64,000 bases of DNA from Gemmatimonadota bacterium (GCA_039588055.1 JBDHAN010000009.1:257-64256); one strand, 5' to 3'. Counted from the first letter of the stretch, positions 50,148-64,000 are shown. The notes: a model not told the origin generated them from the letters alone. Numbers and translations are program-made.

Positions 50148-51493
50148 TACGCGTCACCACTCGGTATGAGATGCGGAATCACACGCTCGAGGCGCATTCC
50201 ACGCGAGGCCTTGAGCAACACGAACTCGCGCCCGTCCAGCCTGCGAGCGAGGCGCTCACCCAAAGTGGCGGGATCATCCGCGGTGAGCAACCGATCTCCC
50301 AGCTCGCTCGCATGCGATTCGAACGCCGTCACGAATGCTCCGGTCACGGCAATGAGCGCCGGTTGAGCCGCAGTCACGCGGTCCGCGACGGCGGCGTGCA
50401 ACTCGTCGCTCTTCGGGCCCAGCTCCAGCATCGTCCCGAGGACCACGACCAAGGGACGCCCGTGACACATTGCCTGGGCAGTTTCGAGTGCGGTCTCGAC
50501 TGAGAGCGGATTGGCGTTGTAGGCGTCGTGCAGCACGACCAGGTCACCGTGATGCAGCACTTCACAGCGGCCAAACGGAAGCTTCGTGCGTGACAACGCC
50601 TGCGCAGCATCGGCGGCCGGCACCCCCAGCTCCCGCCCGACGGCCAGCGCAAGCATCACGTTGTCCACCTGGTGAGAGCCAACGACGGCAAGCTTGAGGT
50701 CAGCGTTCTCGTAGCGGACGATCGGTTGCCCCTGGTCGTCGAGCTGCCACGCGGTTGGCCGCACGTCTGCAGCTGGGGCAACTCCCGCCACCACCACCTT
50801 TGCAACACGGGCCCGCGCTTCGACGGCCAGCTCGGGTGGCCGTGTACCGACGACTGCACAGGGAACGCCCGCGGCGAGGGCCAACTTCTCCTCCAAGACG
50901 TCTCGCTCGCTTCCAAACCCTTCGAGGTGCCCTGCTGACACGTTGGTGATCACGGTGAGCGTCGGCTCGATGATTCCGCGTAGCGTCGCGATCTCACCAG
51001 GGACGCTCGCTCCAGCCTCCACCACGAGAACCTCTGTGTCGTCCGGCGCCCCGAGCAGGGTCAGTGGAACGCCGATCAGGTTGTTGAGGTTGCCACGTGT
51101 CGCGTGCACGGACCATCGCGTGCCGAGTACCCCCGCCACCATCTCCTTCGTTGCGGTCTTGCCGTTGGTGCCTGTCACAGCCACGACCGGCCCCGTGAGC
51201 TCCCGGCGACGCGCTCGCGCGAGATTCCCGAGGGCCGCGAGCGTATCTGCCACCCGAAACGCGACCAGTCCATCCGGAACCGCCGCATCTTCGTGCACCA
51301 CAACCCCGCGCGCGCCTCGCGCAAGGGCATCGCCGAGGAAGGTGTGCCCGTCGAACCGCTCACCCACCAGTGCCACGAACAGCGCACCCGGTTCCAGCAC
51401 GCGGGAGTCCGTCTCGATCGACTGGAACACCGCAGGCGCGACGGGCGCCGTGTCCAGGACTCGCGCCACCAGCTCACTGGTCCAGCGGCTCAC
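50147..51493 (-). CDS. murF: UDP-N-acetylmuramoyl-tripeptide--D-alanyl-D-alanine ligase
   Basis: 448 aa. VTGTNGKTATKEM and DAYNANP, positioned between murE and mraY. Confidence 0.92.
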   Translation of the reverse strand: MSRWTSELVARVLDTAPVAPAVFQSIETDSRVLEPGALFVALVGERFDGHTFLGDALARGARGVVVHEDAAVPDGLVAFRVADTLAALGNLARARRRELTGPVVAVTGTNGKTATKEMVAGVLGTRWSVHATRGNLNNLIGVPLTLLGAPDDTEVLVVEAGASVPGEIATLRGIIEPTLTVITNVSAGHLEGFGSERDVLEEKLALAAGVPCAVVGTRPPELAVEARARVAKVVVAGVAPAADVRPTAWQLDDQGQPIVRYENADLKLAVVGSHQVDNVMLALAVGRELGVPAADAAQALSRTKLPFGRCEVLHHGDLVVLHDAYNANPLSVETALETAQAMCHGRPLVVVLGTMLELGPKSDELHAAVADRVTAAQPALIAVTGAFVTAFESHASELGDRLLTADDPATLGERLARRLDGREFVLLKASRGMRLERVIPHLIPSGDA

Positions 51494-52956
51494 TCGTGAC
51501 CCTCCGCTCCCATGAGCTCACGCACGACCTCCAGCTCGTCGAACGGCACTCGCGTTGTCCCGATCTCCTGATAGGTCTCGTGCCCTTTGCCCGCCAGGAG
51601 CACGACGTCTCCCGGCTCGACCATCACCAACGCGTGCCGAATCGCCTCTCGTCGGTCGCAGATGCGAACGTGCGAGGTCCCCTCCATGCCGGATTCGATG
51701 TCGTCGATGATGCGCTCGGGATCTTCGGTTCGCGGGTTGTCCGACGTGACGATGGCCACGTCGGCCGCGCGCGCCACCGCTTGCCCCATGAGCGGACGCT
51801 TGCTCCGGTCGCGATCTCCACCAGCTCCGAACACGACAATCAGGCGCCCGGCGGTCAGAGGGGTGAGGGCCGCGATTGCGCGTTCGAGCGCATCGGGCGT
51901 GTGGCAGTAGTCCCGAAGCACGGACGCCGGCCCGCTGGCGAGCAACTCCATACGGCCGGCCACTTGGGGTACCGTGGCGAGCGCGCGCGCGATATCTGAA
52001 GGGTCGACACCGAGTGCCCACGCTGCCGCGGACGCCGCCAGCGCATTCTGCACGTTGAAATCCCCGAGCAGCGGGCACCGCACACCCACGGCACGACCTG
52101 CGAACACCAACGTGGTCGACACCTCGTCGCGCCGGAGCTCGACGTCGCGCGCCTCAACATCGTACTCGGGCGAACGTCCATAGCTGATGCGGCGGATCTC
52201 ACTTCGCTGCGGCAGTGCCAGCCACGCCGGATCCTCTTCATTGACCACTTCGATCCCTCCGGGATGGAGATGGTCGGAGAGCTTCGCCTTCGCATCGCGG
52301 TAGGCGTCGAGGCTCGGGTGATAGTCCAGATGCTCGTGGGACAGGTTCGTGTACACCGCGGCCGCGAGACGCAGGGTTTCGAGCCGTCGTTGGTCCAGCG
52401 CGTGCGACGACGCTTCCATCACCACCGTGCTCGCTCCGCGGTCACGCAGCGCGGCCAATACGCCATGCAGCTCCACGGCACCCGGTGTGGTGAGGTTCCC
52501 GTAGCCTTGGAGTGCAGTGCCCAGGCCGTCGAACGCACCCAGTGTCCCGATCGACCCGGCGTCTCGAGCGGCGTTCAAGAGGTGCTTGAGAATCGCGACC
52601 GTGGTGGTCTTGCCGTTGGTGCCGGTGACGCCGATGACCCGAAGATCGTCTGCCGGCCGGCCGAACCACTCGCGTGCAACCACCGAGGCGGCGACGCGGC
52701 CGTCTCGCACGACGACCTGCGGAATAGCACTGTCGACTGGGGTCATGACCACGGCAACCGCCGCCCCACGCCCCCGCGCGTCCTCGACATACCGGTGGCC
52801 GTCCTCGACCGTCCCTGCGACGGCGCAAAAGAGCCCCCCCGCAACGACGCGCCGTGAGTCCTCGCTCACACCGGAGACCTTCACGTCGATGTCGGGCGCC
52901 GAGACCAGCTGCGTTGCCTGCCTGAGCGCCTCTACCAGAGCGCGAAGCGGCTTCAT
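51490..52956 (-). CDS. murE: UDP-N-acetylmuramoyl-L-alanyl-D-glutamate--2,6-diaminopimelate ligase
   Basis: From ATG at 52956 (ATGA overlap with the ftsI stop; track ORF runs to 53052): GVTGTNGKTTTVA, EASSHAL, GAGGDRDRSKRP, DNPRTEDP (the DNPR motif suggests meso-DAP specificity). Confidence 0.92.
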   Translation of the reverse strand: MKPLRALVEALRQATQLVSAPDIDVKVSGVSEDSRRVVAGGLFCAVAGTVEDGHRYVEDARGRGAAVAVVMTPVDSAIPQVVVRDGRVAASVVAREWFGRPADDLRVIGVTGTNGKTTTVAILKHLLNAARDAGSIGTLGAFDGLGTALQGYGNLTTPGAVELHGVLAALRDRGASTVVMEASSHALDQRRLETLRLAAAVYTNLSHEHLDYHPSLDAYRDAKAKLSDHLHPGGIEVVNEEDPAWLALPQRSEIRRISYGRSPEYDVEARDVELRRDEVSTTLVFAGRAVGVRCPLLGDFNVQNALAASAAAWALGVDPSDIARALATVPQVAGRMELLASGPASVLRDYCHTPDALERAIAALTPLTAGRLIVVFGAGGDRDRSKRPLMGQAVARAADVAIVTSDNPRTEDPERIIDDIESGMEGTSHVRICDRREAIRHALVMVEPGDVVLLAGKGHETYQEIGTTRVPFDELEVVRELMGAEGHE

Positions 52957-54869
52957 TTCGTGGACCGTGCGGTACTGGCGGTGATGGTAACGAGCGCACC
53001 AGGCGGCACGCTGTCTCCCGCCACAGGATCGCTGGTGTCCACGAATCCCCACCCGACCGCGCGGACGCGAAGACCGGCACCGTGGAGCTGACGCGAGGCC
53101 TGCCGCAATGAGAGCCCGACCACATCCGGCATGGTCCGCGGCGTTGCCGAGTCACGCGGCCGGACCACCGGCCACGGGGTAATCCACCGCTCGGGCGCTG
53201 CCTCCGCCGATCGCCGATCGACGGGTGCCGTTGCCTGTGTGAGTCGTCCCCGGTCCAGCGCGTCGCTCTGCGCGGCGAGCAGCTCCTGTAGCACGCGTCG
53301 CGTGACGGGTGCCGCGGTCAGGGCTGCATAGCCTTCGCGGGGGTCGGCGAGTTTCACGACCATCGCGATCTGCGGATCGTCAGCGGGAAAGAGCGACGCG
53401 AACGTGGCCGTGTACGACCCTTGGATGTACCCGCCTGGCCCTGCCAGGCGCGCCGTACCGGTCTTCCCTGCGACCTCATAGCTCGTGAGTGCCGCCGTCT
53501 CTCCGGTCCCGCCTTCGTACACGACGCCGCGAAGCATGCCGCGCAACTCGGCCGCCACCTCGCGCGACACGACGCGACGGACAGGCTGGGGCACGTGGCG
53601 GTATGCGACTCCCCCGCTGGGCGATCGGACTTCGCGAATGATCGTCGGCTGCATCATGAGCCCGTCATTGGCAACGGCGGCATAGGCCTGTGCCAGTTGC
53701 AGCGCCGTGACTGCCACCTCGTAGCCCATCGCCAGACTGACCGCACTGGTCCCACTCCACTGATGCGGGTGTCGAAGTATGCCCGGGGATTCAGCCGGAA
53801 ACTCGACGCCGGTCGGAGACCCGAGGCCGAACTCCCGCAGCATCCCAAACTGCTGGGCCGGCGTCAGGCGTTGTGAGAGCTTTGCGATGCCGATGTTGCT
53901 GGAGCGTCCGATCACGTCGCGCAGAGTGAGCCACCCCTCCTCGTGCTCATCGGTGATGATGCGCCCGTTCAGCTCGTACTCCCCGAGCTCCGCCCACACA
54001 CTGTCGTCTGGGCGAGCGGCACCCTCAGTGAGCAGGGCCGCAGCGACGAACAGCTTCGCGGTCGAGCCAGGCTCGAACACACCGGTCCACGCGCCGGCCC
54101 CGAGCTCTCCCTTCGACGCGATGGCAAGGATCTCACCCGTCTGCGGCTCCAACACCACGACGTCGCCACCGCGGGCGTCGTGCGTTTCGAGCGCGTCCTC
54201 CAGCGCCTGCTCCACGATTTCTTGGAGATCGGCGTCGAGCGTCAGATATACGTCATGCCCGGGCACCGGAAAGGCACCGAGTCGCGCTGGCGATTCATAC
54301 CGGGTGCCGCGCCGATCGCGCAGCACCACGGCGGTTCCCGGCGTGCCGGCCAACAGCGTGTCGAGCACGCGCTCGATGCCGCTCGACGGCCGTCCGTCAC
54401 TCCCCGGTCGCCCAGCGACGAGCCGGGCGAGATCCGGATGCGGATGGAAGCGTCGCAGCTCACTGGTGAGGTGCACGCCGCGGAGATCGCGAATCTGCTG
54501 CACTTGGAGCGACGTGTACGGCCCGGCGAAATACGCGTAGCGGCCACGAAGCCGACGCCGAACCGTGGCGAGCGGCACGCGCAACTCCTGTGCGATGAGC
54601 CGGGCATCTGCGGCGGGATCGCGGAGCTCGTTCGGCGCGACGCCGACGTGAAAGACTTCCTGGGTCAGGGCCAGCGCGGTGCCCTTGCGGTCATAGATGG
54701 TGCCACGACGGGCCGGGAGCTGCCGACGCTCCGTTCGGTGGGCGACCGCGGCCGCCGCGTGCTCGGAACCCTGGACGAGCTGCACTTGGGCAGCCCGGCC
54801 GACGAGCAACAATCCGGCGAGCACGAACGCCACCTGCACGAGCTGAAGTCGGGCGACCTGGCGTGCCAC
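52953..54869 (-). CDS. ftsI: Class B penicillin-binding protein FtsI (PBP3) with a C-terminal PASTA domain
   Basis: 638 aa. N-terminal TM, dimerisation domain, transpeptidase motifs (FEPGSTAKLF = SxxK, SSN, KTGTA). C-terminal MPDVVGLSLRQASRQLHGAGLRV...GDSVPPGALVTI is a PASTA pattern. Confidence 0.9.
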   Translation of the reverse strand: MARQVARLQLVQVAFVLAGLLLVGRAAQVQLVQGSEHAAAAVAHRTERRQLPARRGTIYDRKGTALALTQEVFHVGVAPNELRDPAADARLIAQELRVPLATVRRRLRGRYAYFAGPYTSLQVQQIRDLRGVHLTSELRRFHPHPDLARLVAGRPGSDGRPSSGIERVLDTLLAGTPGTAVVLRDRRGTRYESPARLGAFPVPGHDVYLTLDADLQEIVEQALEDALETHDARGGDVVVLEPQTGEILAIASKGELGAGAWTGVFEPGSTAKLFVAAALLTEGAARPDDSVWAELGEYELNGRIITDEHEEGWLTLRDVIGRSSNIGIAKLSQRLTPAQQFGMLREFGLGSPTGVEFPAESPGILRHPHQWSGTSAVSLAMGYEVAVTALQLAQAYAAVANDGLMMQPTIIREVRSPSGGVAYRHVPQPVRRVVSREVAAELRGMLRGVVYEGGTGETAALTSYEVAGKTGTARLAGPGGYIQGSYTATFASLFPADDPQIAMVVKLADPREGYAALTAAPVTRRVLQELLAAQSDALDRGRLTQATAPVDRRSAEAAPERWITPWPVVRPRDSATPRTMPDVVGLSLRQASRQLHGAGLRVRAVGWGFVDTSDPVAGDSVPPGALVTITASTARSTK

Positions 54870-54871
54870 CG

Positions 54872-55165
54872 CTAACGATCCCTCGTGCTGGGGCCTTCCA
54901 ACATCACGATCTCGCTGTCGGCCGGCATCCGGAGCCCAAGCGACTCTGCACGCGGAATGAGCACAGCACGGCTCTGCGCCTCACGGATTCGGCGCATCAA
55001 CGCGGCCTTCTGCGCCTCGACGACGGACCGTTCGGTCCGACGCTCTTCGAGCGCACGCGCGGTCACGTGTGCGGACGTCTGCCTCGCCGTCACCCACACG
55101 AGCACGGCGAGCACGAACAGCAACCATAGGCTGACCCAAAACCGACCTCTAGGAGTGGCCGCCAC
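54872..55165 (-). CDS. ftsL: Cell division protein FtsL
   Basis: 97 aa. Single TM (FWVSLWLLFVLAVLVWV) followed by a coiled coil. Position between rsmH and ftsI. Confidence 0.75.
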   Translation of the reverse strand: MAATPRGRFWVSLWLLFVLAVLVWVTARQTSAHVTARALEERRTERSVVEAQKAALMRRIREAQSRAVLIPRAESLGLRMPADSEIVMLEGPSTRDR

Positions 55166-56057
55166 AGAGGAATCCTCGGAGCTTGGCGCTGCGGGCTCGG
55201 GGGTTCATCGCGATCTCGCGATCCGACGACACGATGGGTCGCCGTGGATCGCGTTGCCCAAGGGCCCGTCCGCGGCACGTGCACACGGGTTGCCCGGGCG
55301 GACACACGCAGTCCGTCGCCCACTCTCGAAACATTCGCTTGACGATTCGATCTTCTCCCGAATGATAGCTGATCACGGCCAAACGGCCGCCGGGCACGAG
55401 TGCGGCGCGCACGGCAGGGAGCGCGCGCTCGAGCTGCCTGAGCTCGTCATTGACCGCCACACGCACCGCCTGGAACAGTCGCGCAAAGTCGGACGGGCCG
55501 CTGCGCGGCCCCAGCGCAGCTCGAATCGCGTTGACGAGATCATCGCTGATCCGGAACGGCTGCCGCTGACGCCGACGAGTGATGGTGGTGGCGAGCCGAC
55601 TCGCCTTCCGCTCATCGGCGTACTCACGGAATATGGTGGCGAGCTCATCTCGCGGGATGGTGTTCAGGAGATCGGCAGCCGTCGGCCCCGAGCGGTCCAT
55701 TCGCATGTCGAGCACGGTATTGGGCCGAAAGGAAAAGCCGCGACCGGCATCGTCGAAATGCCGCGAGGAGACGCCCAGGTCGAACAACGCGAAATCCGGC
55801 CCAAATTCCTGGATCCGCCGCAGGACCTCGGGCGCACCGAATCGGCCACGCACCCAGTGGATCCCCGAGGAGCCCAAGCGCTCTTGCGCTCCGGCGAGGG
55901 CGTCTGGGTCGCAATCCACGGCCAACACTTCAGCGCCGAGGTCCCGGAGCCGCTGGGTGTGCCCGCCATCCCCAACCGTTGCGTCGACAGCCCGCCTGCT
56001 GCCCGACGCCAGCTGCGCCACGGCGTCCGCCAGAACCGGAACGTGAGGCGCGGTCAT
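55149..56057 (-). CDS. rsmH: 16S rRNA (cytosine1402-N4)-methyltransferase
   Basis: From ATG at 56057: MTAPHVPVLADAV...DATVGDGGHT...FDLGVSSRHFD...ISYHSGEDRIVK. The longer track ORF runs through tRNA-Asp. Confidence 0.92.
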   Translation of the reverse strand: MTAPHVPVLADAVAQLASGSRRAVDATVGDGGHTQRLRDLGAEVLAVDCDPDALAGAQERLGSSGIHWVRGRFGAPEVLRRIQEFGPDFALFDLGVSSRHFDDAGRGFSFRPNTVLDMRMDRSGPTAADLLNTIPRDELATIFREYADERKASRLATTITRRRQRQPFRISDDLVNAIRAALGPRSGPSDFARLFQAVRVAVNDELRQLERALPAVRAALVPGGRLAVISYHSGEDRIVKRMFREWATDCVCPPGQPVCTCRGRALGQRDPRRPIVSSDREIAMNPRARSAKLRGFLCGGHS

Positions 56058-56083
56058 CACCGGTCCCTGTGCCGATAGACAGC

Positions 56084-56110
56084 GGCCCCGCGTGCTGAGC
56101 GCGCGGGGCC
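56084..56110 (-). terminator. GC-rich stem-loop (about 12 bp) between tRNA-Asp and rsmH; no U-tract
   Basis: GGCCCCGCGTGC-TGA-GCGCGCGGGGCC read directly. It lies 30 nt downstream of the tRNA 3' end and 27 nt upstream of the rsmH ATG. Confidence 0.3.
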
Positions 56111-56139
56111 GGAAGGAATCAACGTTGTCATGAGTCGAG

Positions 56140-56213
56140 CGGGGCTGACGGGATTTGAACCCGCGGCCTCCGGTGTGACAGACCGGCACTCTAACCAGCT
56201 GAGCTACAGCCCC
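56140..56213 (-). tRNA. tRNA-Asp (anticodon GTC)
   Basis: Minus strand: GGGGCTG TA GCTC AGCTGGTTA GAGT G CCGGT CTGTCAC ACCGG AGGCC GCGGG TTCAAAT CCCGT CAGCCCC G. Full cloverleaf folded by eye; CCA is not encoded. Confidence 0.9.
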
Positions 56214-56266: not shown

Positions 56267-58018
56267 CTAGCGGCAGCTATAGGCCTGCCTGAGTTGCGGT
56301 ATCCGCCCTTCGAACGCCTGGAACTGCTGTAGGAACTGCTGCGCCTGCTGGGGCGCCAGGGACGCGCCGAGCTCCAACGCCCTCTTCCCGCGCGAAATCA
56401 TGCTGGCTTCCTCTTCGACCAGCTCACACGACTGCGTCTCGGTCACCTGTGGGTCGAACTCGTAAATCCGGAACATCAGGCCGAGACCCAAGAAGAAGTT
56501 GCTCTGCTGGCTCAACCGCTCCAGCACATCGTTTTCGACCGCCTTTTCGAGCCACGCCACGGCGACCGGAATCTGCTGGCGCGTCTGCACCAAGGCTGAC
56601 CCCTTCTGGTAGTACATGACGGCAGCGTTCATCAACACTGACGGCTCACGGCTCGCGGTGGTCGCCCGCTCGAGGAACTCACCACCTTTGAACAACCGCG
56701 CCGTGTCGAGCGGTGTCGCCGTGTCGATCGGCAGGTCCTCGAGCAGGATGTTCGCCGCCGCAAGGGCGCTCCGATAATCCGTGGGGTCGAGCTCGATCAG
56801 GTGATCGTAGACGGTGACCACCGAATCGAGCATGCCAGCTGCTGCGAGGGCGCTCGCGTGGGCGCGCCACAACGAGACGGCGTCGGGGGCGTGCCGCACC
56901 GCCTCTCCCGACCACTCCAGCATGGCTGCCGTGTCCGACAGCGCCTGTGACGCCCCGACGATCTGCTGATAGAACACCGAGTCGCCGACCAGCGTCGTGT
57001 CGATCTCGTACTGGCTCGCCAATGATTCGAGCGCGCAAGCCCACAAACCGCCCTCGATGCAGGCCCGGGCTTTGAGCTGCAGCATCCCGAGGTCGGTCGG
57101 GTTCTCCGCGAACCACGCGTCGGCCAAATCACGCGCTAGTTCGTGTTCCCTCAGAGTAATCGCACCCGCCACCACGCCCATGCGGAGTTCGCGGTTCGCG
57201 CCGTCGACACGACTCTGCCGCGCGAACGCGGTCAGCGCTGCGACCGAATCTCCACTCTGTTGGTGCAGCCGGCCGAGGCGCTCCCACGCTTTCACCATGA
57301 GGGAATCACCTTGGACTGCGAGCTGGAGATAGGCGATCTGACTGTCCACCGGCTGACGCAACGCTTCAGTGACGATCTCAGCGCACATCGCCGCAGCGGG
57401 ATGGTTTGGATAGATCTGGAAGGCCCGACTTGCTCGCTCCATTGCCCGGCCGAAATCGCCGTTCGCTGTGCGGTCGGAGCACTCCCGTGCAAACTGCGCC
57501 GCGCGCACTTGATTCTCGAGGCTGTCGACGACGGTCTCGGCGAAGGTTCGGGGCGGATCGCCGGGGGTGCCCCGCACAGTGGTCCACCCAGACATACCCG
57601 AGCGACCGAGATCGACGATGTGGAAGTTCGCCATCGGCACCGGCCCTTGGTGCCAGACGCTCCCACTGATGTATGCGTCAGACTGGAGTGCCCGTGCGAG
57701 GCGTTCCTCATCGGCCCGGCCCAGCACTTGGTCGCACCGGTAGGCCGACTCCTCGAGCACCTGGCAAATCACATCGTTCTGCAGCACGCGCAACTTGTGA
57801 CGCATCTTGTTGCGCATCCGCTTGCGGACTTCATCCGCCAACTCGGCCACGTAGGCCGTGTCAGTGCCGTCGCCAGGGCTCGGGATCAGAAACAGCACTT
57901 TCTCATTCGAGCGCGGCACAGCAAGCTGCGCGTTCGCACTCGTGACCGCGGTCGTCACCGCCATGGCGGTACCGAGCAGGGTCAGCATGCCTCGTCTTCT
58001 CAGTCGTGTCCACCGCAC
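56267..58018 (-). CDS. Secreted TPR-like repeat protein
   Basis: GTG at 58018 is preceded by AGGAGGAG (7-nt spacer). It gives VRWTRLRRRGMLTLLGTAMAVTTAVTSANA|Q as a signal peptide, and the rest is alpha-helical with TPR-like repeats. The 714-aa track ORF extends across tRNA-Val and is not credible. Confidence 0.7.
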   Translation of the reverse strand: MRWTRLRRRGMLTLLGTAMAVTTAVTSANAQLAVPRSNEKVLFLIPSPGDGTDTAYVAELADEVRKRMRNKMRHKLRVLQNDVICQVLEESAYRCDQVLGRADEERLARALQSDAYISGSVWHQGPVPMANFHIVDLGRSGMSGWTTVRGTPGDPPRTFAETVVDSLENQVRAAQFARECSDRTANGDFGRAMERASRAFQIYPNHPAAAMCAEIVTEALRQPVDSQIAYLQLAVQGDSLMVKAWERLGRLHQQSGDSVAALTAFARQSRVDGANRELRMGVVAGAITLREHELARDLADAWFAENPTDLGMLQLKARACIEGGLWACALESLASQYEIDTTLVGDSVFYQQIVGASQALSDTAAMLEWSGEAVRHAPDAVSLWRAHASALAAAGMLDSVVTVYDHLIELDPTDYRSALAAANILLEDLPIDTATPLDTARLFKGGEFLERATTASREPSVLMNAAVMYYQKGSALVQTRQQIPVAVAWLEKAVENDVLERLSQQSNFFLGLGLMFRIYEFDPQVTETQSCELVEEEASMISRGKRALELGASLAPQQAQQFLQQFQAFEGRIPQLRQAYSCR

Positions 58019-58066
58019 GGCTAGACTCCTCCTGGTTTTCGGCAGATCCGTTGGCCAAACCACCGA

Positions 58067-58141
58067 TGGGCGAAGAGGGATTCGAACCCCCGACTTCCTG
58101 CTTGTAAGGCAGGCGCTCTGGACCAGCTGAGCTATTCGCCC
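58067..58141 (-). tRNA. tRNA-Val (anticodon TAC)
   Basis: Minus strand: GGGCGAA TA GCTC AGCTGGTCCA GAGC G CCTGC CTTACAA GCAGG AAGTC GGGGG TTCGAAT CCCTC TTCGCCC A. Cloverleaf folded by eye; CCA is not encoded. Confidence 0.9.
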
Positions 58142-58152
58142 GCCGAACCCGC

Positions 58153-58338
58153 TCACAGTGCGAGGCCTAGCGGAAACAACACGCAGTAGCCAAGCACCAG
58201 GAGCACCGGAGCCAGCGCTGTCGACCCTCCTGCCAGCAGAACATACCCGACGACCAACGAAACGACAGCGGCACCCAGCAAGGCGTAGTTCCGCGTCCGG
58301 AACCGCAGTCGCGCGGGCGATCCGACCCTCTTGTTCAT
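58153..58338 (-). CDS. Small two-TM membrane protein (DUF3098-like pattern)
   Basis: 61 aa. MNKRVGSPARLRFRTRNYALLGAAVVSLVVGYVLLAGG...LAPVLLVLGYCVLFPLGLAL. The basic segment, NY, and two TM helices resemble DUF3098 as I recall it. Confidence 0.5.
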   Translation of the reverse strand: MNKRVGSPARLRFRTRNYALLGAAVVSLVVGYVLLAGGSTALAPVLLVLGYCVLFPLGLAL

Positions 58339-58371
58339 AGACCCCCACCGTAACCTGAGGTTCCAGAGGCG

Positions 58372-59187
58372 TCAAGTTGTTGAATCCCAATACTGTTCGG
58401 GTACTACCCACCCCTCGTCGAGAGCCTGTCGACGACCCTCGTCACGGCGACGACGGCGGGCCCACAGGGCTGCCAGGAGCAGGGCGACGAAGGCCCAGAA
58501 GACGGTGAGCGACGAGGCCAAGAGGAGCCAGCCATAGCGTCGTCGCAGGTCTCGGCGCCAGAGTTCCTCGAACTGGCTCAGTGTGATCTGGTGTGTCGCG
58601 CGGAGCGCGAGATCGAAATCGGCAGTGCCTTGGAGCGTTGCGATTAGTGGCTCGAGCCCTCGCCCACCACCCAGGCGTTCGAGCAGGACGACGGCTGTCG
58701 TCGCCAGCGCGTAGGAGGCTTCGGCATCGGAGGCCGTGCCCGTTCGAATGTGCCGATTCAAGTCTCGCAGTGACGGCACCACACCCCGAAGCAGCGCCCA
58801 GTTCACCCGCAGCGCCTCGACACGGTCCCACTCACCGGCCGCCCGAGCCGCGTAGCCCTCGTCAAACCAGCGGGGCACGCGCTGGACCACGCTATGTAGC
58901 GCCAGATGCGCCAATTCGTGGCGCAGCACACGCCGGTGATCTCGCGTCAGCGTCAACACAATGGTGTTCGCCGCCGGAAAAGCTGCCGCGACGCCCCATT
59001 CCGGTATCCGGCCCGCCGTGAGCGAATCGAACTGATCCGGCCGCTCGGCAACCACCAGGCGGATCGGTCGCCGCTGGGGATTCGGGATGCCGGGCCACGG
59101 CCCCGCTCGATCGGCCATTTCCGCCAGAGCAATCGCCACGGATTCCGATCCGGGCCAGAACACCGCCGTGACACGTCCGACGTGCAC
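58372..59187 (-). CDS. Putative gluzincin (peptidase MA-like HExxH...WFxEG) with a C-terminal TM anchor
   Basis: 271 aa. VLRHELAHLALHSVVQRVPRWFDEGYA, then TM WLLLASSLTVFWAFVALLLAALW followed by RRRRR. Confidence 0.55.
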   Translation of the reverse strand: MHVGRVTAVFWPGSESVAIALAEMADRAGPWPGIPNPQRRPIRLVVAERPDQFDSLTAGRIPEWGVAAAFPAANTIVLTLTRDHRRVLRHELAHLALHSVVQRVPRWFDEGYAARAAGEWDRVEALRVNWALLRGVVPSLRDLNRHIRTGTASDAEASYALATTAVVLLERLGGGRGLEPLIATLQGTADFDLALRATHQITLSQFEELWRRDLRRRYGWLLLASSLTVFWAFVALLLAALWARRRRRDEGRRQALDEGWVVPEQYWDSTT

Positions 59188-59231
59188 GACGTTCGGTGAA
59201 TTGGCCTGTAGGAAGAAGAGGACGAAACCGA

Positions 59232-60092
59232 CTAGCGTGGGGGCTCCTGACCCTGGGCCACGAGGTCCAACGTCTCGTGGCAGCGCTTGCCCCAGGGGTT
59301 GAACTTGTTGGCCTCATATCCTGCGGTCCATGTCCGCTGCGCGCCTTCGCGATCACCGGCGTACCAGAGTGAGCGACCCAACTCGTAGTAGGCCTCGATC
59401 AGATTAGGCCCCAGCTTGAGCGTCTTCTCGAAAAATGTCTGCGCGTCTTCGTACATCTCACGCTCGAGATAGACCAGACCCAGATAATAATGGGCGTAGA
59501 GTGTGGCTTTCTTGTCATTGTCCAGCCGGATAGCCTTCGACAGATGTTCGATTGCCTCGCCGAACATCTGCTTCTTCAGGCAGACGTACCCAACATTGAT
59601 GCGTGCCAGCGAATTGGTCGGCTCTTTGTTGAGCACTTCGTGGAACGTGGCGAGTGCCGCATCGTACTCCTCATGCAGCATCTGCGCCCATCCGAGCAAC
59701 GACTCTGCCCGGAGATTGCCGGGCGAGAGGGAGAGCGCTTTGGTGAGCGCCTGAATGGCTCCCCCGTAGTCGCCCAACGAGATGAGGCTCCATCCCTTCT
59801 CGATGAAGGTCGATGCACCGATGTGGTCTGCGTGCAAGCCCGGCGCACTGCTCGTGAATTGCGGTGCCTGTCCCCGTCCCTCGTCCTGAGCCACTTCCTT
59901 GTATCGATCCACGAGCACGCGGATGTCCTCCTTGAGCGTGCTCAAGTCCGCGATCGCTTGATCGACCGCCTTGAACAGGGCAATGATGTCCTGCTTGAGT
60001 CGGTCACGCTGCTCACCGCTCTCCGCTTCGTCGAGCCGCTTGGCGATATGGTCGTACGATGCGCGCAGCGAGGCCATTGTCGTTTCGCTCAT
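59232..60092 (-). CDS. Coiled-coil plus TPR repeat protein
   Basis: 286 aa. N-terminal heptad-rich helix (RLDEAESGEQRDRLKQDIIALFKAVDQAIADLSTLKEDIRVLV), then about 5 TPR units (AIQALTKALSLSPGN, ALATFHEVLNKEPTN, AIEHLSKAIRLDNDK, AQTFFEKTLKLGPN). Confidence 0.7.
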   Translation of the reverse strand: MSETTMASLRASYDHIAKRLDEAESGEQRDRLKQDIIALFKAVDQAIADLSTLKEDIRVLVDRYKEVAQDEGRGQAPQFTSSAPGLHADHIGASTFIEKGWSLISLGDYGGAIQALTKALSLSPGNLRAESLLGWAQMLHEEYDAALATFHEVLNKEPTNSLARINVGYVCLKKQMFGEAIEHLSKAIRLDNDKKATLYAHYYLGLVYLEREMYEDAQTFFEKTLKLGPNLIEAYYELGRSLWYAGDREGAQRTWTAGYEANKFNPWGKRCHETLDLVAQGQEPPR

Positions 60093-60129
60093 GGTCGCAT
60101 CCCCGACCGGTCGCCAACGTACTCTCGTG

Positions 60130-61752
60130 TCATGGCAACGCCGTTACGGTTTCGAGATTCGTCCGCGCGAGCTCGTGACTCGGGTTGAGCTCGAGCGCAC
60201 GATTCCAGTACTCGCGTGCCAGCCCGCGTTCCTGTCGCTTGTAGGCGATGTTGCCCAACTTGAAATACACATCGTCGCCAAGCGACGGCTGTTGACGTAC
60301 GGCTCGCTGGTACGATTCCCATGCGTCATCGTAGCTCGCGGAGCGATAGAGCAGATCCCCCAAATTCTTCGACAGCTGCGGCACTCCGAGCTCGTCGAGC
60401 AGCGCCTCGCGCAACACGTCAGCGGCCCGGTCTATTTCCCCACGGGCTTCCAACACGACGGCGAGGTTGTTGGTGAGCGACACTTGGCCCGGATGGGTTT
60501 CGAGTCCCTCCCGCAGCAGTCGTTCGGCGTCGTCCAAGCGATTGAGGGCCGCCGCCGACAACGACCGCGCCCAATACCACAGGGCGGGCAAGGTCGCGCG
60601 CCCGGCGACATCACGTGCCTCGTCGAGCCGACCCGCCGCCACCTCGAAGTCGCCTCGGTGCAACGCCCCGATGCCCCAGCCCGTGAGGATCCGCGGGTCG
60701 CGAGGCGCCAGAGCCGCAGCTTCCGCGTAGGCCCCGTCGGCCTCCTCATACCTGCCGGCCTTTTCGTAGGCGAGCGCGAGGTTCGCGAGGACGTTCGCCC
60801 GGGCGCCGGCGTGATCGACGGCCTGGCTCAGGTAGGCGGCCGCCGCCTCCCAGTGTGCCTGCTTGAGCGCGATCAGGCCGAGATAGAAATACGCCGTCCC
60901 GTCGGCCGGCCGCAGGTCCACGACGCGGCGAAACTCGCGGGTCGCCTCATCCAGCATTTCGGTCTTGTAGAAGGCGACACCGAGGTTGCGATGCTCGTCG
61001 GCGCGCGCCTCACCGACGGCCGACGTGCGGGGTGCCTGACTTTTACCGACGCGGTGCGCGAACCCGGCTGTTACGAGACCGTAGATGGCTTTGCCCACCT
61101 CGAATTCAATGAGACCCGACTCCTCGACGAGTTGAGCAACGTCGTGTTGCCCATCGATCAAGGGAACGATTCGCTCCTGTTCCCGCGTGAGTGACACCTG
61201 CGAGGCTTCGAGACGCTCCCGGTCTACCTCGAAGATGATCTGGAGTGACGGAATCTTCTTCTCGATGAGGCTCCACTCGTCGACACGGCGGGCGCCTTCG
61301 AGCAAGAGCGATTCCGGATTGATGCTGACGACAAAGTCCTGTTCGGCCGGGAGAATATCGCTCTCGAACGTGAAGTGCCCGCGCGTCCAAGTGAACAGGA
61401 AATACACGGCTTCCTCGATCTGCACCCGCATGTAATGCTCAAGGTCCCCCTGCGAGATGGCGCCCTGCGTCACCAGAATCTCACCGAGTCGCCTCTCGCG
61501 CTGCCTCGCTTGTTCGTCGATCCCGGCCTCGAGTTGCGTATTGGATATCCGTCCGTTCTTGAGCAGGATGTCGCCGAGGCGGTCCCGTCGATTGACGACC
61601 GAGGCATAGACGATGCTGCCACGATCGAAATAGATGTACCCGAGGTTCGTCCGATCGGTCACGGTGAGGCAGCCCGACTTCTGACCCAGTGCCAGGAGCT
61701 GCAGCACGTCCGCCAGCGAGGCTTCTTTCAGGCTTCCCTTAATCGCCATCAC
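60130..61752 (-). CDS. DUF4388 (PATAN-type) domain protein fused to a long TPR array
   Basis: 540 aa. IKGSLKEASLADVLQLLALGQKSGCLTVTDRTNLGYIYFDRGSIVYAS matches the DUF4388 N-terminal pattern, and the C-terminal ~300 aa are TPR repeats. The start (GTG 61752 or ATG 61749) overlaps the upstream stop. Confidence 0.7.
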   Translation of the reverse strand: MMAIKGSLKEASLADVLQLLALGQKSGCLTVTDRTNLGYIYFDRGSIVYASVVNRRDRLGDILLKNGRISNTQLEAGIDEQARQRERRLGEILVTQGAISQGDLEHYMRVQIEEAVYFLFTWTRGHFTFESDILPAEQDFVVSINPESLLLEGARRVDEWSLIEKKIPSLQIIFEVDRERLEASQVSLTREQERIVPLIDGQHDVAQLVEESGLIEFEVGKAIYGLVTAGFAHRVGKSQAPRTSAVGEARADEHRNLGVAFYKTEMLDEATREFRRVVDLRPADGTAYFYLGLIALKQAHWEAAAAYLSQAVDHAGARANVLANLALAYEKAGRYEEADGAYAEAAALAPRDPRILTGWGIGALHRGDFEVAAGRLDEARDVAGRATLPALWYWARSLSAAALNRLDDAERLLREGLETHPGQVSLTNNLAVVLEARGEIDRAADVLREALLDELGVPQLSKNLGDLLYRSASYDDAWESYQRAVRQQPSLGDDVYFKLGNIAYKRQERGLAREYWNRALELNPSHELARTNLETVTALP

Positions 61753-63704
61753 ACCAACTCCTCGATCATCCGGTCAACCGGGTCAGGCCAATCCCACACG
61801 ACCTTCTCCCGGCTCGTGACGCTCGCGAGCGGCGATGTCAGCACGCCGCTCGTCCGAACGGCGCGCGACGCTGTGTGCATCGCGCCGAGCGCCCCGTCCA
61901 TGAGCGCGCTCACGAACGCCATATCGGGTTCACGATCCTCCGCCTGGGCAGCACGCACGACGCGCTGCACGAGACTCTGCACGGCGCGGATGGAATCGGC
62001 GGGCCGGTCAGCCAGGTAGTCCACGACGCTATCGTATACTTCGTGATACTTGGCCTCGAGTCGCTGCCGGACCAAGGACCGGCGCAACTCGCGATCCGGC
62101 GGACCCAACGCCGCAACGAGTCCGCCTTCGAGGCGCGTGACGAGGCGGTTGTCCAGCCCCTCAACGTCCCGAGGTGGCTGCGACAGCGTGAAGATCAACT
62201 GTAACTGCTTCTGATGCAGCGTGTTGTAGAGATGAAAGATCTCTTCCTGCGACCGTTCCTTGCCAGCGAGCCCGTGAAAATCGTCCAGCAGCAGTGCCGT
62301 CGCACTGCGATACCGTTTCCGCCACGCTTCGACACGATCGCCGTCGATGGCATCGAGCAACTCGTCGACGAACTGCTGTGCGGACAGACACGCCACACGT
62401 GATCCAGCGGTGCCGGCTAGTTGATTGCCGATGGCATGCAAGAGGTGCGTCTTACCCACCCCCAACGGCCCAACCAGGACGAGTGGGTTGTAGGCGGTCC
62501 CCGGCGACGCAATCACCGCATTGGCCGCGCCGAGTGCCACCTTGTTGCACTCGCCACCGACCAGCGACTCCAGAGTCCATGCCTCCGACGGCCCCGGGGG
62601 CGGTCGGCCTTCCTTCAGCGCCAGCTGAACGAGTTCGTCGGCTTCCCGGAGGCGCTCGGGATCGTAGAAGACGGGGTCGCTCACCCGATTCGGATCGACC
62701 CGAACCATGGCGCGTTGGAACGACCGCAGCCGGTCGATGTCCCGCTCGTAGTCGCGAATGGTTCGCTCGACACCGGACGGCACGTCCTGCGTGAGCAAAC
62801 GCTCCAGGCGGCCCGTGCGATATCCCTCTCCGCCCCACCGCGTAATGGCGTCGGCGACTCGCGCCCGCCACGCCTCCACCTGTTCCTGAACGGAGTGACT
62901 CACACCGCTCAGGAAGTCACCGAATTCGTCGCCGGGCCGCGGTGTCGGGCGCATGGCTCCCGAGATCGCCACCGGGCGGGTCGGCACCTCACCGGCCAAC
63001 AGCTGGTGTGCCGCCTCTGCCGTGAGCGGCGTTTCACTCAGCGCCTGGTAGGCGACCAGGCGATTCAGGAGGCCGAGAAGCTCGCGGACGTTTTGGACGT
63101 CGAAGTCCGCCACGGCCTCGAGCACCGCCGGCTCCAACTCGACCCCGCGCTCGTCGGCCCGGCGCTTGAGAATGGTGATCCGAGTCTCGCAGTCCGGGAT
63201 GTCCATATCGACAACCAGCCCACCGTCGAAGCGCGACAGCAGGCGATCGTCCAGCTCCTGGATCTCAGTCGGCGGACAGTCGCTCGTCAGCACGACCTGT
63301 TGGTTCGCCGCCTGCAGCTGCTCGACGATCGTCAAGACCTCGGATTGCATCTCTCGTCGATGCGTGAGAAACTGCACATCGTCGATGAGTAACACATCCA
63401 CGCGCGCGAACCGCGCGCGAAGGGCCTCGATCTGCCCGGCACCCACGGCAGCGTTATGCTGCTCCACGAACTCATCCAGTGTGACGTATTCGACATCCAC
63501 ATCCGGTTGGAGATGGGCGGCGAGCTGGCCGATGGCCATGAGCAGATGCGTCTTGCCGAGGCCACTTTCCGCGTAGATGAACAACGGATTGTAGGCCGTA
63601 CCCGGGGACTCACTCACCGTGCGAGCCGCGGTCACGGCGAGCCGATTGGCCGCCCCGACGATGAACGAGTCGAACGTGAAACGGGGGTTGAGCTCCTCGG
63701 TCAC
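61749..63704 (-). CDS. Tandem DnaA-type AAA+ ATPase (two DnaA domain-III modules; no domain I, II or IV)
   Basis: 651 aa. Module 1: LNPRFTFDSFIVGAANRLA...NPLFIYAESGLGKTHLL, VLLIDDVQFL, VVLTSD, DRLLSRFDGGLVV, NVRELLGLLNRL. Module 2: NPLVLVGPLGVGKTHLLHAIG, ALLLDDFHGL, LIFTLSQ, NRLVTRLEGGLVAAL, SIRAVQSLVQRV. The GTG start overlaps the mglA stop (GTGA). Confidence 0.85.
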   Translation of the reverse strand: MTEELNPRFTFDSFIVGAANRLAVTAARTVSESPGTAYNPLFIYAESGLGKTHLLMAIGQLAAHLQPDVDVEYVTLDEFVEQHNAAVGAGQIEALRARFARVDVLLIDDVQFLTHRREMQSEVLTIVEQLQAANQQVVLTSDCPPTEIQELDDRLLSRFDGGLVVDMDIPDCETRITILKRRADERGVELEPAVLEAVADFDVQNVRELLGLLNRLVAYQALSETPLTAEAAHQLLAGEVPTRPVAISGAMRPTPRPGDEFGDFLSGVSHSVQEQVEAWRARVADAITRWGGEGYRTGRLERLLTQDVPSGVERTIRDYERDIDRLRSFQRAMVRVDPNRVSDPVFYDPERLREADELVQLALKEGRPPPGPSEAWTLESLVGGECNKVALGAANAVIASPGTAYNPLVLVGPLGVGKTHLLHAIGNQLAGTAGSRVACLSAQQFVDELLDAIDGDRVEAWRKRYRSATALLLDDFHGLAGKERSQEEIFHLYNTLHQKQLQLIFTLSQPPRDVEGLDNRLVTRLEGGLVAALGPPDRELRRSLVRQRLEAKYHEVYDSVVDYLADRPADSIRAVQSLVQRVVRAAQAEDREPDMAFVSALMDGALGAMHTASRAVRTSGVLTSPLASVTSREKVVWDWPDPVDRMIEELV

Positions 63705-64000
63705 CGCGGAGCCTCCTCGCTCAGTTTCCGCAGTACGAGCTCCGACACCGCCTTCAGCGTCTCGAACACGCCGACACCCCGGAGCGCATCCGAGGCAAAA
63801 CTCGGCACACCCCAGAAATTGAGTGCGTCGTCGAGCTCGCTCGGAGTGAGGATGAGGTCACCCGGAAGGTCCTGCTTGTTGTACTGAAACACCAATGGCA
63901 GCGAGCGTGCGTCTTCTTCGAGCTCGATTAGGTTGGCCTGCAGGTTCTGGAGGCTCGCAATGTTCTCGTCGAGTTGCCGAGCCTGACTGTCGGCGACGAA
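63701..64000 (-). CDS. mglA: MglA-type Ras-like small GTPase, C-terminal 99 aa; N-terminus lies beyond the window
   Basis: The frame is open to the window edge: FVADSQARQLDENIASLQNLQANLIELEEDARSLPLVFQYNKQDLPGDLILTPSELDDALNFWGVPSFASDALRGVGVFETLKAVSELVL. It is closely parallel to MglA (FVADSQ, QYNKxDLP, GVGVFxTLKA). Confidence 0.85.
   Translation of the reverse strand, partial: FVADSQARQLDENIASLQNLQANLIELEEDARSLPLVFQYNKQDLPGDLILTPSELDDALNFWGVPSFASDALRGVGVFETLKAVSELVLRKLSEEAPR

Follow-up and report, generated by a model that had tools for sequence, protein, structure and literature searches.

The four-gene run and its borders

On the minus strand of a 64,000-nucleotide stretch from a Gemmatimonadota bacterium (GCA_039588055.1 JBDHAN010000009.1:257-64256; the whole stretch is called the window in the following), four consecutive open reading frames (ORFs) cover positions 58153-61752 and close at a tRNA-Val gene. 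From 5′ to 3′ they encode a protein in which a PATAN (DUF4388) domain precedes an array of tetratricopeptide repeats (TPR), termed PATAN-TPR, a second TPR protein of 286 amino acids (TPR286), a protein with an HExxH motif and a small membrane protein (mini). The four genes are read here as the distal part of one operon-like cluster for a polarity switch of the MglA/MglB type together with the proteins of its output, and the PATAN domain contains a candidate motif for the binding of cyclic di-GMP (c-di-GMP).

The initial annotation of the window had described four genes on the same strand, separated by 33-44 nucleotides and ending at tRNA-Val. The ORF list agrees with this description, giving gaps of 37, 44 and 33 nucleotides and 11 nucleotides between mini and the tRNA gene, except that the 44-nucleotide gap in front of the HExxH ORF is probably coding itself. 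Terminator-like or promoter-like sites, which had been named as signs of separate transcription units, were absent from all gaps in a consensus scan, which is weak evidence.

The run is preceded on the same strand by a gene encoding a tandem DnaA-type AAA+ protein of 651 amino acids with two Bac_DnaA ATPase modules (61749..63704; Pfam Bac_DnaA, E-value 3.9e-99, two matched stretches). In front of it lies the 3′ part of mglA (63701..64000), which encodes a Ras-like GTPase and is truncated by the window end. This fragment is 61-82% identical to the C-terminus of mglA in relatives (tblastn), and the gene upstream of the tandem AAA+ gene shows Arf/Ras matches in all relatives. The contig has a length of 64,535 bp, and genes upstream of mglA are out of reach for this genome.

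The ORF of PATAN-TPR was listed at 60130-61752 with 540 amino acids from a GTG codon. Since the sequence MAIKGSLKEASL at the start from ATG 61749 is invariant in relatives, this ATG is taken as the real start, and the gene (60130..61749, minus strand) encodes 539 amino acids. The 539-residue product is matched exactly by an entry from a 2.7-kb JGI contig, and the look-up of the exact 540-residue product gave no match. The stop codon TGA of the AAA+ gene and the ATG of PATAN-TPR overlap by one base (TGATG). This is a classic coupling arrangement, by which the two genes are predicted to be translationally coupled.

Predicted properties of the encoded proteins

The DUF4388/PATAN domain (PF14332) of PATAN-TPR was matched at residues 5-161 with an E-value of 3.6e-38 and 130.8 bits (cut-off 25), and the alignment runs through the complete profile (positions 1-122 of 122), leaving about 35 residues as an insert. 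The TPR array (60145..61002, minus strand, about residues 250-535) is recognised by several TPR families of Pfam, whose matches fall between residues 260 and 526. The architecture proposed in the initial annotation was therefore recovered, only the length of 540 residues was not. A receiver domain, as in PATAN-REC proteins, is not part of it, as PATAN-TPR gave no Response_reg match and its C-terminal half consists of TPR repeats.

The insert in the PATAN domain (61420..61581, minus strand, residues 57-110), whose motif the initial annotation had missed, matches the NCBIfam model NF053729 (c-di-GMP_motif, MshE-related) with 48.3 bits at a cut-off of 38. It consists of motif I, RLGDILLKNGRISNTQLEAGIDEQ (residues 57-80), a spacer of six residues and motif II, RLGEILVTQGAISQGDLEHYMRVQ (residues 87-110). 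MshEN domains are defined by two tandem motifs of 24 residues with the consensus RLGxx(L/V/I)(L/V/I)xxG(L/V/I)(L/V/I)xxxxLxxxLxxQ (PMC5013675). Both motifs of the insert fit this definition, each having the R, L, G, LL/LV, G, L and Q of the consensus. In a phmmer search against the PDB both align to MshE of Vibrio cholerae (5htl, E-value 8.7e-6) and also to PilB and PilF. An AlphaFold model of residues 1-249 reached an overall predicted local distance difference test score (pLDDT) of 70, with 80-89 for the insert, which is folded into four helices. Using Foldseek, the modelled insert was superposed on c-di-GMP-bound MshE (5htl_B) over 54 columns with a root-mean-square deviation of 1.0 Å and 37% identity, and on the GSPIIB domain of Thermus PilF (8pdk) with about 1 Å. 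Both motifs are found in 83 of 88 loci, those of another phylum included. The PATAN domain carries a complete inserted tandem motif of the MshEN type, which is predicted to bind c-di-GMP, and PATAN-TPR looks like a previously undescribed c-di-GMP sensor. No description of a link between a PATAN insert and MshEN was found in the literature searched, and the NCBIfam model does detect the motif.

For the PATAN core itself, Foldseek gave no global match in the PDB. Local matches over about 71 columns, to GATOR1/SEA-complex subunits and a winged helix, are too weak to interpret. Behind the core, residues ~170-236 (~61042-61242) form a winged-helix-like subdomain in the model (pLDDT ~88), for which the local Foldseek matches (a winged helix of Pol III, subunits of the GATOR1/SEA complex) are likewise too weak to interpret. 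GATOR1/SEA-complex subunits are regulators of Rag GTPases.

A second PATAN protein, encoded in the clusters of relatives (L082:4335-5762, with equivalents in L083, L086 and L088), contains an MshEN-like helical insert as well (HRLGELLLRAGKITEGDLTRMREQQ ... RQLGAILVEAGALSRKELERQVRIQ). It is more degenerate, its motif II beginning with Q instead of R. Because of this second case, an MshEN-like insert may be common to this PATAN subfamily as a whole. The PATAN-MshEN N-domain also occurs in other architectures (P0246, P0251 and P0270 with 950-1530 amino acids; P0241, P0248 and P0258 with ~1450-1490), one group being long proteins with a CarboxypepD_reg end and another proteins with four to six tandem PATAN domains.

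TPR286 (59232-60092, minus strand) consists of a helical N-terminal region followed by a TPR domain. Pfam TPR matches at residues 95-255 support the repeats that had been proposed for it, and its N-terminal ~75 residues gave no Pfam match. It has no hydrophobic segment and is described as cytoplasmic. A distant counterpart is TPR281 of candidate division WOR-3 (281 amino acids), which shares 40% identity over 197 amino acids (E-value 1e-55) and is encoded between cheB and cheW. In relatives of the window genome, the start of the TPR286 gene overlaps the stop of cheW.

The HExxH gene (58372-59187, minus strand, counted from the first canonical start) encodes 271 amino acids, and its identification as a gluzincin-like protein of the Peptidase_MA_2 type is well supported. 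The Peptidase_MA_2 profile (PF13485) was matched with 42.7 bits at a cut-off of 32.4. In 32 homologs, the residues H90, E91 and H94 of the motif HELAH (residues 90-94) and E110 of WFDEGYA do not vary, so that HExxH is joined by a third Glu ligand about 20 residues downstream, as is characteristic of gluzincins. The sequence gave nothing meaningful against the PDB, whereas a fold search with the AlphaFold model (pLDDT 88.4) retrieved the M9 peptidase domain of a clostridial collagenase (4ar8, E-value 6e-5) as well as enzymes of the families M61, M30, M1 and M4, so that the nearest solved folds are catalytic domains of gluzincins. Flagellinolysin (NF033876) was rejected, as it reached 35.1 bits at a cut-off of 205 with an alignment limited to the zinc-site region.

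Near residue 230 the protein has a hydrophobic segment, which is followed by RRRRR and a conserved tail (RRRRRD..RR.ALDEGW.VP), in which W242, R245, R252, L256, G259 and W260 are invariant among the homologs. The frame is also open for 42 codons upstream of GTG-59187, back to position 59313. Within it, a probable 5′ extension of the gene (59188..59283, minus strand) overlaps the 3′ end of TPR286. The supposed 44-nucleotide gap encodes the signal-peptide-like stretch TLVGFVLFFLQA/NSP, and the extension, ...GAPTLVGFVLFFLQA/NSP..., aligns with the signal-peptide-like N-termini of homologs that start with ATG or GTG (P0149, P0220, P0229, P0237, L087, L088 and L089); in L088 this N-terminus is MRATGRTLARVRTFVLAGAALLPHALPAQ. 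The peptidase domain is therefore most likely periplasmic. The C-terminal helix would cross the inner membrane, leaving the conserved tail in the cytoplasm.

Neither the window nor its closest relatives (L002-L007) have an ATG, GTG or TTG ahead of the signal-peptide stretch. One candidate start is an ACG at 59238-59236 (AGGAG-N5-ACG), which is conserved in the window and in L002-L007. It lies over the 'CCA CGC TAG' of TPR286, using the rare Pro codon CCA of that frame. Another is a CTG at 59283-59281, which falls in the alignment where other homologs begin with Met or Val. Translation of the extended gene would begin at a non-canonical codon of this kind or be coupled to that of TPR286. The gene call on public record, P0121 (263 amino acids), begins later still, which is why it has no signal peptide. 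Two further routes into the frame were rejected. For a programmed -1 frameshift from TPR286, the putative slippery site lacks conservation (GAG CCC CCA, CCA CCA, CCG CCA, CCG CTA), and for read-through of the stop codon, the in-frame continuation is not hydrophobic.

Mini (58153-58338, minus strand) consists of 61 amino acids with two hydrophobic, predicted transmembrane segments, as the initial annotation had stated. Its proposed relation to DUF3098 (PF11297) remains below the threshold, with 23.7 bits at a cut-off of 25 over profile positions 2-29 of 67. DUF3098 matches at E<0.1 were obtained for 15 of 24 mini members, all of them sub-threshold and none better than that of the window copy, and weak matches also comprise DUF3040 and an SCO2097-family morphological protein. 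For DUF3098 essentially no literature and no known function were found. Mini is conserved in 54 loci with a nearly invariant ...APxLLVLGYCVLxP..., and this conservation indicates a real, strongly conserved gene. The tRNA-Val(TAC) gene behind it (58067-58141, minus strand) was detected by ARAGORN and Rfam.

Conservation of the gene order

PATAN-TPR orthologs occur in at least 578 GTDB species genomes, and a search with the PATAN-MshEN N-domain at E<=1e-30 gave 556 representatives of 50% identity clusters. In a genome scan with the N-domain, the best 80 of the at least 578 species genomes were used as loci. Of these, 78 carry names of the Gemmatimonadota lineage, L017 is named only 'bacterium' and L075 is labelled Myxococcales. 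By the names of its homologs, the organism of the window falls into the order Gemmatimonadales. The consensus order was derived from gene calls on two long contigs and tblastn mapping of all loci, and distant loci were taken from the search of cluster representatives, one per 50%-identity cluster.

The consensus begins with cheA, cheC/X, a gene for a TPR protein of ~905 amino acids, the second PATAN gene, three Roadblock/LC7 (MglB-like) genes, mglA, the tandem AAA+ gene and PATAN-TPR. It continues with cheR, cheD, cheB, two cheW genes, TPR286, HExxH, mini and tRNA-Val, which are followed by a gene for a secreted TPR protein, tRNA-Asp and rsmH-ftsL-ftsI. The four genes of the window are thus the tail of a roughly 20-gene cluster in relatives. 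Genes of the mglB/roadblock type, which had been suspected upstream of mglA, are present there in three copies; for the window genome this region lies beyond the contig. Such a composite cluster was not found in the literature searched, and a study of Frz evolution (PMC4546325) contains nothing on clusters of this type.

In 70 of 72 loci, mglA, the AAA+ gene and PATAN-TPR follow one another without interruption, and the AAA+ gene is always next to PATAN-TPR in relatives. Further downstream, a TPR286 ortholog was located in 61 loci, and the mini-tRNA-Val end is covered in 55. The order of six genes proposed for the window is hence conserved far beyond this genome, but represents a reduced form, since 53 of the 61 loci carry a five-gene che insert between PATAN-TPR and TPR286. 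The insert is absent from seven loci (the window, L004, L005, L013, L049, L073 and L087) and partial in L012. The nearest relatives L004 and L005 have the three Roadblock genes without cheA or cheC, and their cluster begins after lspA-rluD. From these comparisons, the che genes appear to have been lost in the lineage of the window. Among the 55 loci with mini, HExxH is present in 44 and absent from 11. The membrane-anchored metalloprotease-like protein, which the initial annotation had linked to the module, is a facultative member, and its peptidase domain most likely faces the periplasm. A tRNA-Val gene was found 1-60 nucleotides after mini in all 35 Gemmatimonadota-type loci scanned, regardless of the genes further downstream. 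Mini and tRNA-Val, usually with HExxH before them, form the invariant right end of the Gemmatimonadota-type block.

In L090, cheW and cheY precede cheA. Directly upstream of these three genes lies an ORF of 943 amino acids (L090:5846-8677), whose third-position GC content of 0.66 is lower than that of its neighbours (~0.85). It was considered as a methyl-accepting chemotaxis protein (MCP) and rejected, as it is lipoprotein-like and has no Pfam match.

Distant loci add further arrangements. Full-length PATAN-MshEN-TPR orthologs with 37-41% identity occur in low-GC lineages including WOR-3. The WOR-3 locus L085 (GC 0.33) contains pilM, pilN, pilO, a gene x and pilQ and, further on, efp, a pilT-like gene, mglA, AAA+, PATAN-TPR, cheR, cheD, cheB, TPR281 and cheW. 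In L084 (GC 0.34) a pilT-like gene and an accC-like (biotin carboxylase) gene precede mglA, AAA+, PATAN-TPR and cheRDB. L086 (GC 0.70) has the full Che/Mgl cluster with TPR299, mini, tRNA-Val, DUF302, a tRNA cluster, YkuD and PBP2, and lacks HExxH and the dcw (division and cell wall) cluster. In L088 (GC 0.70) cheB is followed by HExxH, mini, tRNA-Val, a lipoprotein gene and FTR1, without TPR286 and without dcw. Finally, L087 (GC 0.67; JGI 3300036760, Ga0373620_0000521) comprises rluD, AAA+, PATAN-TPR, TPR284, HExxH, mini, tRNA-Val, a TPR protein gene and rsmH. It has no mglA, mglB or che gene and shares its left border, lspA-rluD, with the che-less L005. PATAN-TPR and TPR286 are thus cross-phylum members of the MglA, AAA+ and Che core, and the AAA+-to-mini block can be retained where MglA is missing. 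The reading given in the initial annotation is supported in part.

Downstream of tRNA-Val, the window contains a gene for a 573-residue TPR protein with the signal peptide MLTLLGTAMAVTTAVTSANAQ (56267-57988, minus strand). It is located between tRNA-Val and tRNA-Asp (56139-56213), and the position is kept in many relatives. An ORF of 714 amino acids at 56267-58411 is an artefact, an ORF extension running across tRNA-Val. Directly after tRNA-Asp the dcw cluster (51490-56189, minus strand) starts with rsmH, whose listed ORF (55149-56189) overruns the tRNA gene, so that the true start is further downstream. It continues with an ftsL-like gene (54872-55165), ftsI (52953-54869) and murE (51490-53052). 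The interval from tRNA-Asp to rsmH showed no mraZ.

Proposed function and comparison with known systems

We consider it probable, with clear reservations, that the genes encode an output branch of an MglA/MglB polarity switch, which senses c-di-GMP and is scaffolded by TPR proteins, with type IV pili or the cell pole as the likeliest target and with an optional envelope peptidase. In most relatives, the Che pathway (CheW, CheY, CheA, CheC, CheR, CheD, CheB) would provide the input, MglA/MglB the switch and the AAA+-to-mini block the output; the lineage of the window would have lost the input and retained switch and output. PATAN-TPR would act as a cytoplasmic scaffold or effector, whose helical insert binds c-di-GMP and whose PATAN core and TPR array dock partners such as MglA-GTP, the tandem AAA+ protein or a pilus-motor ATPase. 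TPR286 may be a further adaptor, one associated with the Che proteins; in relatives its gene directly follows cheB or cheW. The HExxH protein is envisaged as an active zinc peptidase, which is exported to the periplasm and held at the inner membrane by its C-terminal helix. Its short, Arg-rich cytoplasmic tail would be a possible ligand of one of the TPR proteins, and mini a membrane partner.

The controlled process is most likely polar type IV pilus activity or pole identity. The pilus output is proposed because of the WOR-3 context, the PATAN regulators that bind PilB1 (10.1101/2021.06.11.447907; PMC9090330) and the known TPR effectors of MglA. The latter comprise SgmX (PMC7519303, PMC7668184) and a partner in Bdellovibrio (PMC3983030), which the initial annotation had also mentioned. 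Neighbourhoods of PATAN genes with mglA/mglB, mentioned there as well, are indeed in the literature (PMC4316618; 10.1101/2021.06.11.447907) and, according to citing papers, were also noted by Makarova et al. (2006). In Myxococcus xanthus, control of polar type IV pili is a known output of MglA/MglB (PMC3441718, PMC7519303, PMC7668184). The role proposed for PATAN-TPR parallels SgmX and Bd2492, as TPR effectors of MglA, and the PilB-binding PATAN regulators of cyanobacteria.

Several observations weigh against this proposal. No pil gene or MCP gene lies within 10 kb of the Gemmatimonadota-type clusters, so that the case for a pilus output draws on the gene neighbourhoods in WOR-3 and L084 and on known precedents. 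The retention of the block without mglA in L087 means that it is not strictly dependent on MglA. HExxH, mini and tRNA-Val are absent from the WOR-3 (L085) and L084 clusters, and HExxH is missing in 20% of the loci; they are possibly lineage-specific add-ons. Without a canonical start, the HExxH copy of the window could be poorly expressed or decaying. With regard to the insert, its spacer comprises six residues vs. five in MshEN, the position after the central G (G+1) is occupied by R or A and is not hydrophobic, and the last L of the motif is I or M. The confidence of the PATAN model is only moderate (pLDDT 70), c-di-GMP binding by the insert is a prediction from motif and model, and the physical interactions among the cluster proteins are all inferred.

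The main rival to the pilus reading is a role in polar growth, budding or division instead of motility. AAA+, PATAN-TPR, TPR286, HExxH and mini would then form a machine associated with the envelope or division, with MglA and Che as mere regulators in some lineages. We regard this role as unlikely, although it draws on the neighbourhood of dcw or PBP2 genes and on the MglA-less locus. Most Gemmatimonadales have the secreted TPR protein, tRNA-Asp and rsmH-ftsL-ftsI-murE immediately downstream of the block, and in L087 it stands beside dcw without mglA, mglB or che, whereas such adjacency may be gene order inherited within one order, and the downstream genes in L088 (FTR1, an amidohydrolase) are unrelated to the envelope. 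The L,D-transpeptidase and PBP2 downstream in L086 and the weak matches of mini to DUF3098, DUF3040 and an SCO2097-family morphological protein would suit a role in growth, as would the lack of pil genes near the Gemmatimonadota clusters. However, the WOR-3 core lies beside pilMNOQ and a pilT-like gene, and the characterised precedents for MglA, PATAN and MshEN all concern type IV pili.

Improbable in our estimation, but far-reaching, is the idea that AAA+, PATAN-MshEN-TPR, TPR286, HExxH and mini constitute a self-contained trans-envelope machine for pole-local envelope proteolysis, to which MglA/MglB and Che are optional regulators. A c-di-GMP-gated PATAN/TPR scaffold, remodelled by the tandem AAA+ protein, would capture the cytoplasmic tail of the peptidase. 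If so, the helical insert of PATAN would be a new and widespread class of c-di-GMP receptors, represented by the 556 clusters.

It is slightly more doubtful still that the MglA/Che module includes PATAN-TPR and TPR286 alone, while HExxH and mini are an unrelated envelope unit, possibly tied to tRNA-Val, which is adjacent by chance. The absence of both from the WOR-3 and L084 clusters, the lack of HExxH in 11 of 55 loci and the constant joining of mini to tRNA-Val would be explained in this way. Against such a separation, mini in L086 and HExxH with mini in L088 end the Che/Mgl cluster despite different downstream genes, although neither locus adjoins dcw. Moreover, HExxH abuts cheB in L088 with zero gap, and in L089 and in the window its frame and the 3′ end of the TPR gene share an overlap.

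That the genes are unrelated and adjacent by chance, with a synteny that reflects shared ancestry only, is very improbable and already largely refuted: most of the 80 loci do come from a single order with common flanking genes, but the core order recurs in a different phylum at 33% GC, stop/start overlaps exist, and gains and losses follow module boundaries block by block.

To our knowledge, detailed work on MglA/MglB switches is almost confined to Myxococcus, Bdellovibrio and Thermus. With the output branch proposed here, a whole pathway of Che input, GTPase, three GAP-like Roadblock proteins, a novel tandem AAA+ protein, PATAN/TPR effectors and envelope proteins would be assembled in one operon-like array of a poorly studied phylum. 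Natural deletion variants (che-less, HExxH-less and MglA-less) separate input, switch and output. The MshEN motif in PATAN is a concrete candidate route of c-di-GMP to the MglA switch, and if it binds c-di-GMP, thousands of DUF4388 proteins gain a ligand.

The motif resembles MshEN of V. cholerae MshE, Thermus thermophilus PilF and PilB in its two tandem 24-residue motifs (RLGxxLLxxGxIxxxxLxxxLxxQ) and in the four-helix unit predicted by the model. In contrast to the N-terminal location in these secretion and pilus ATPases, it is found inside PATAN here, and MshEN_C is absent. PATAN-TPR shares an N-terminal PATAN/DUF4388 domain and a genetic link to Che-like proteins with the cyanobacterial PATAN-REC regulators (PatA, PixG, PixE, LsiR), which bind the pilus motor ATPase PilB1. 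It differs from them in that the receiver is missing, a TPR array of ~290 amino acids forms the C-terminus and the insert has a full MshEN motif. The HExxH protein has the HExxH motif with a downstream Glu and the overall catalytic-domain fold in common with clostridial collagenase M9 and Peptidase_MA_2. With ~12-15% identity and a TM-score of ~0.5 it is distant from M9, and it is a small single domain with a C-terminal anchor and a conserved, putatively cytoplasmic tail. Mini agrees with DUF3098 in its small size, the two transmembrane segments and the N-terminal F/NY motif region (profile positions 2-29), but it scores below the curated cut-off, has a shorter loop and covers only the first half of the profile.

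In Bdellovibrio bacteriovorus, the TPR protein Bd2492 and a RomR/CdgA hub are known, a c-di-GMP receptor feeds the same pole-defining complex, and the c-di-GMP sensor is a degenerate GGDEF protein. MglA with a TPR partner there (PMC3983030) corresponds to PATAN-TPR beside mglA here, whereas the candidate c-di-GMP sensor in this cluster is the MshEN-type insert in the PATAN domain of the TPR protein itself. The cluster also resembles the Frz/MglAB/SgmX system of M. xanthus in having a Ras-like GTPase, Roadblock-type partners, a CheA/CheW/CheR/CheB input and large TPR proteins as candidate effectors. MglA, Roadblock and Che proteins occur together in the relatives, and the window shows the 3′ end of mglA only. 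Unlike in M. xanthus, homologs of RomR, FrzZ and FrzS were not seen here, and the cluster of the window lineage has no che genes. All components of the relatives are encoded in one cluster, with three Roadblock genes, a tandem DnaA-type AAA+ gene after mglA, PATAN domains on TPR proteins and both CheC and CheD. The tail of an envelope peptidase and mini, which ends in a tRNA gene, further distinguishes the cluster from these polarity modules.

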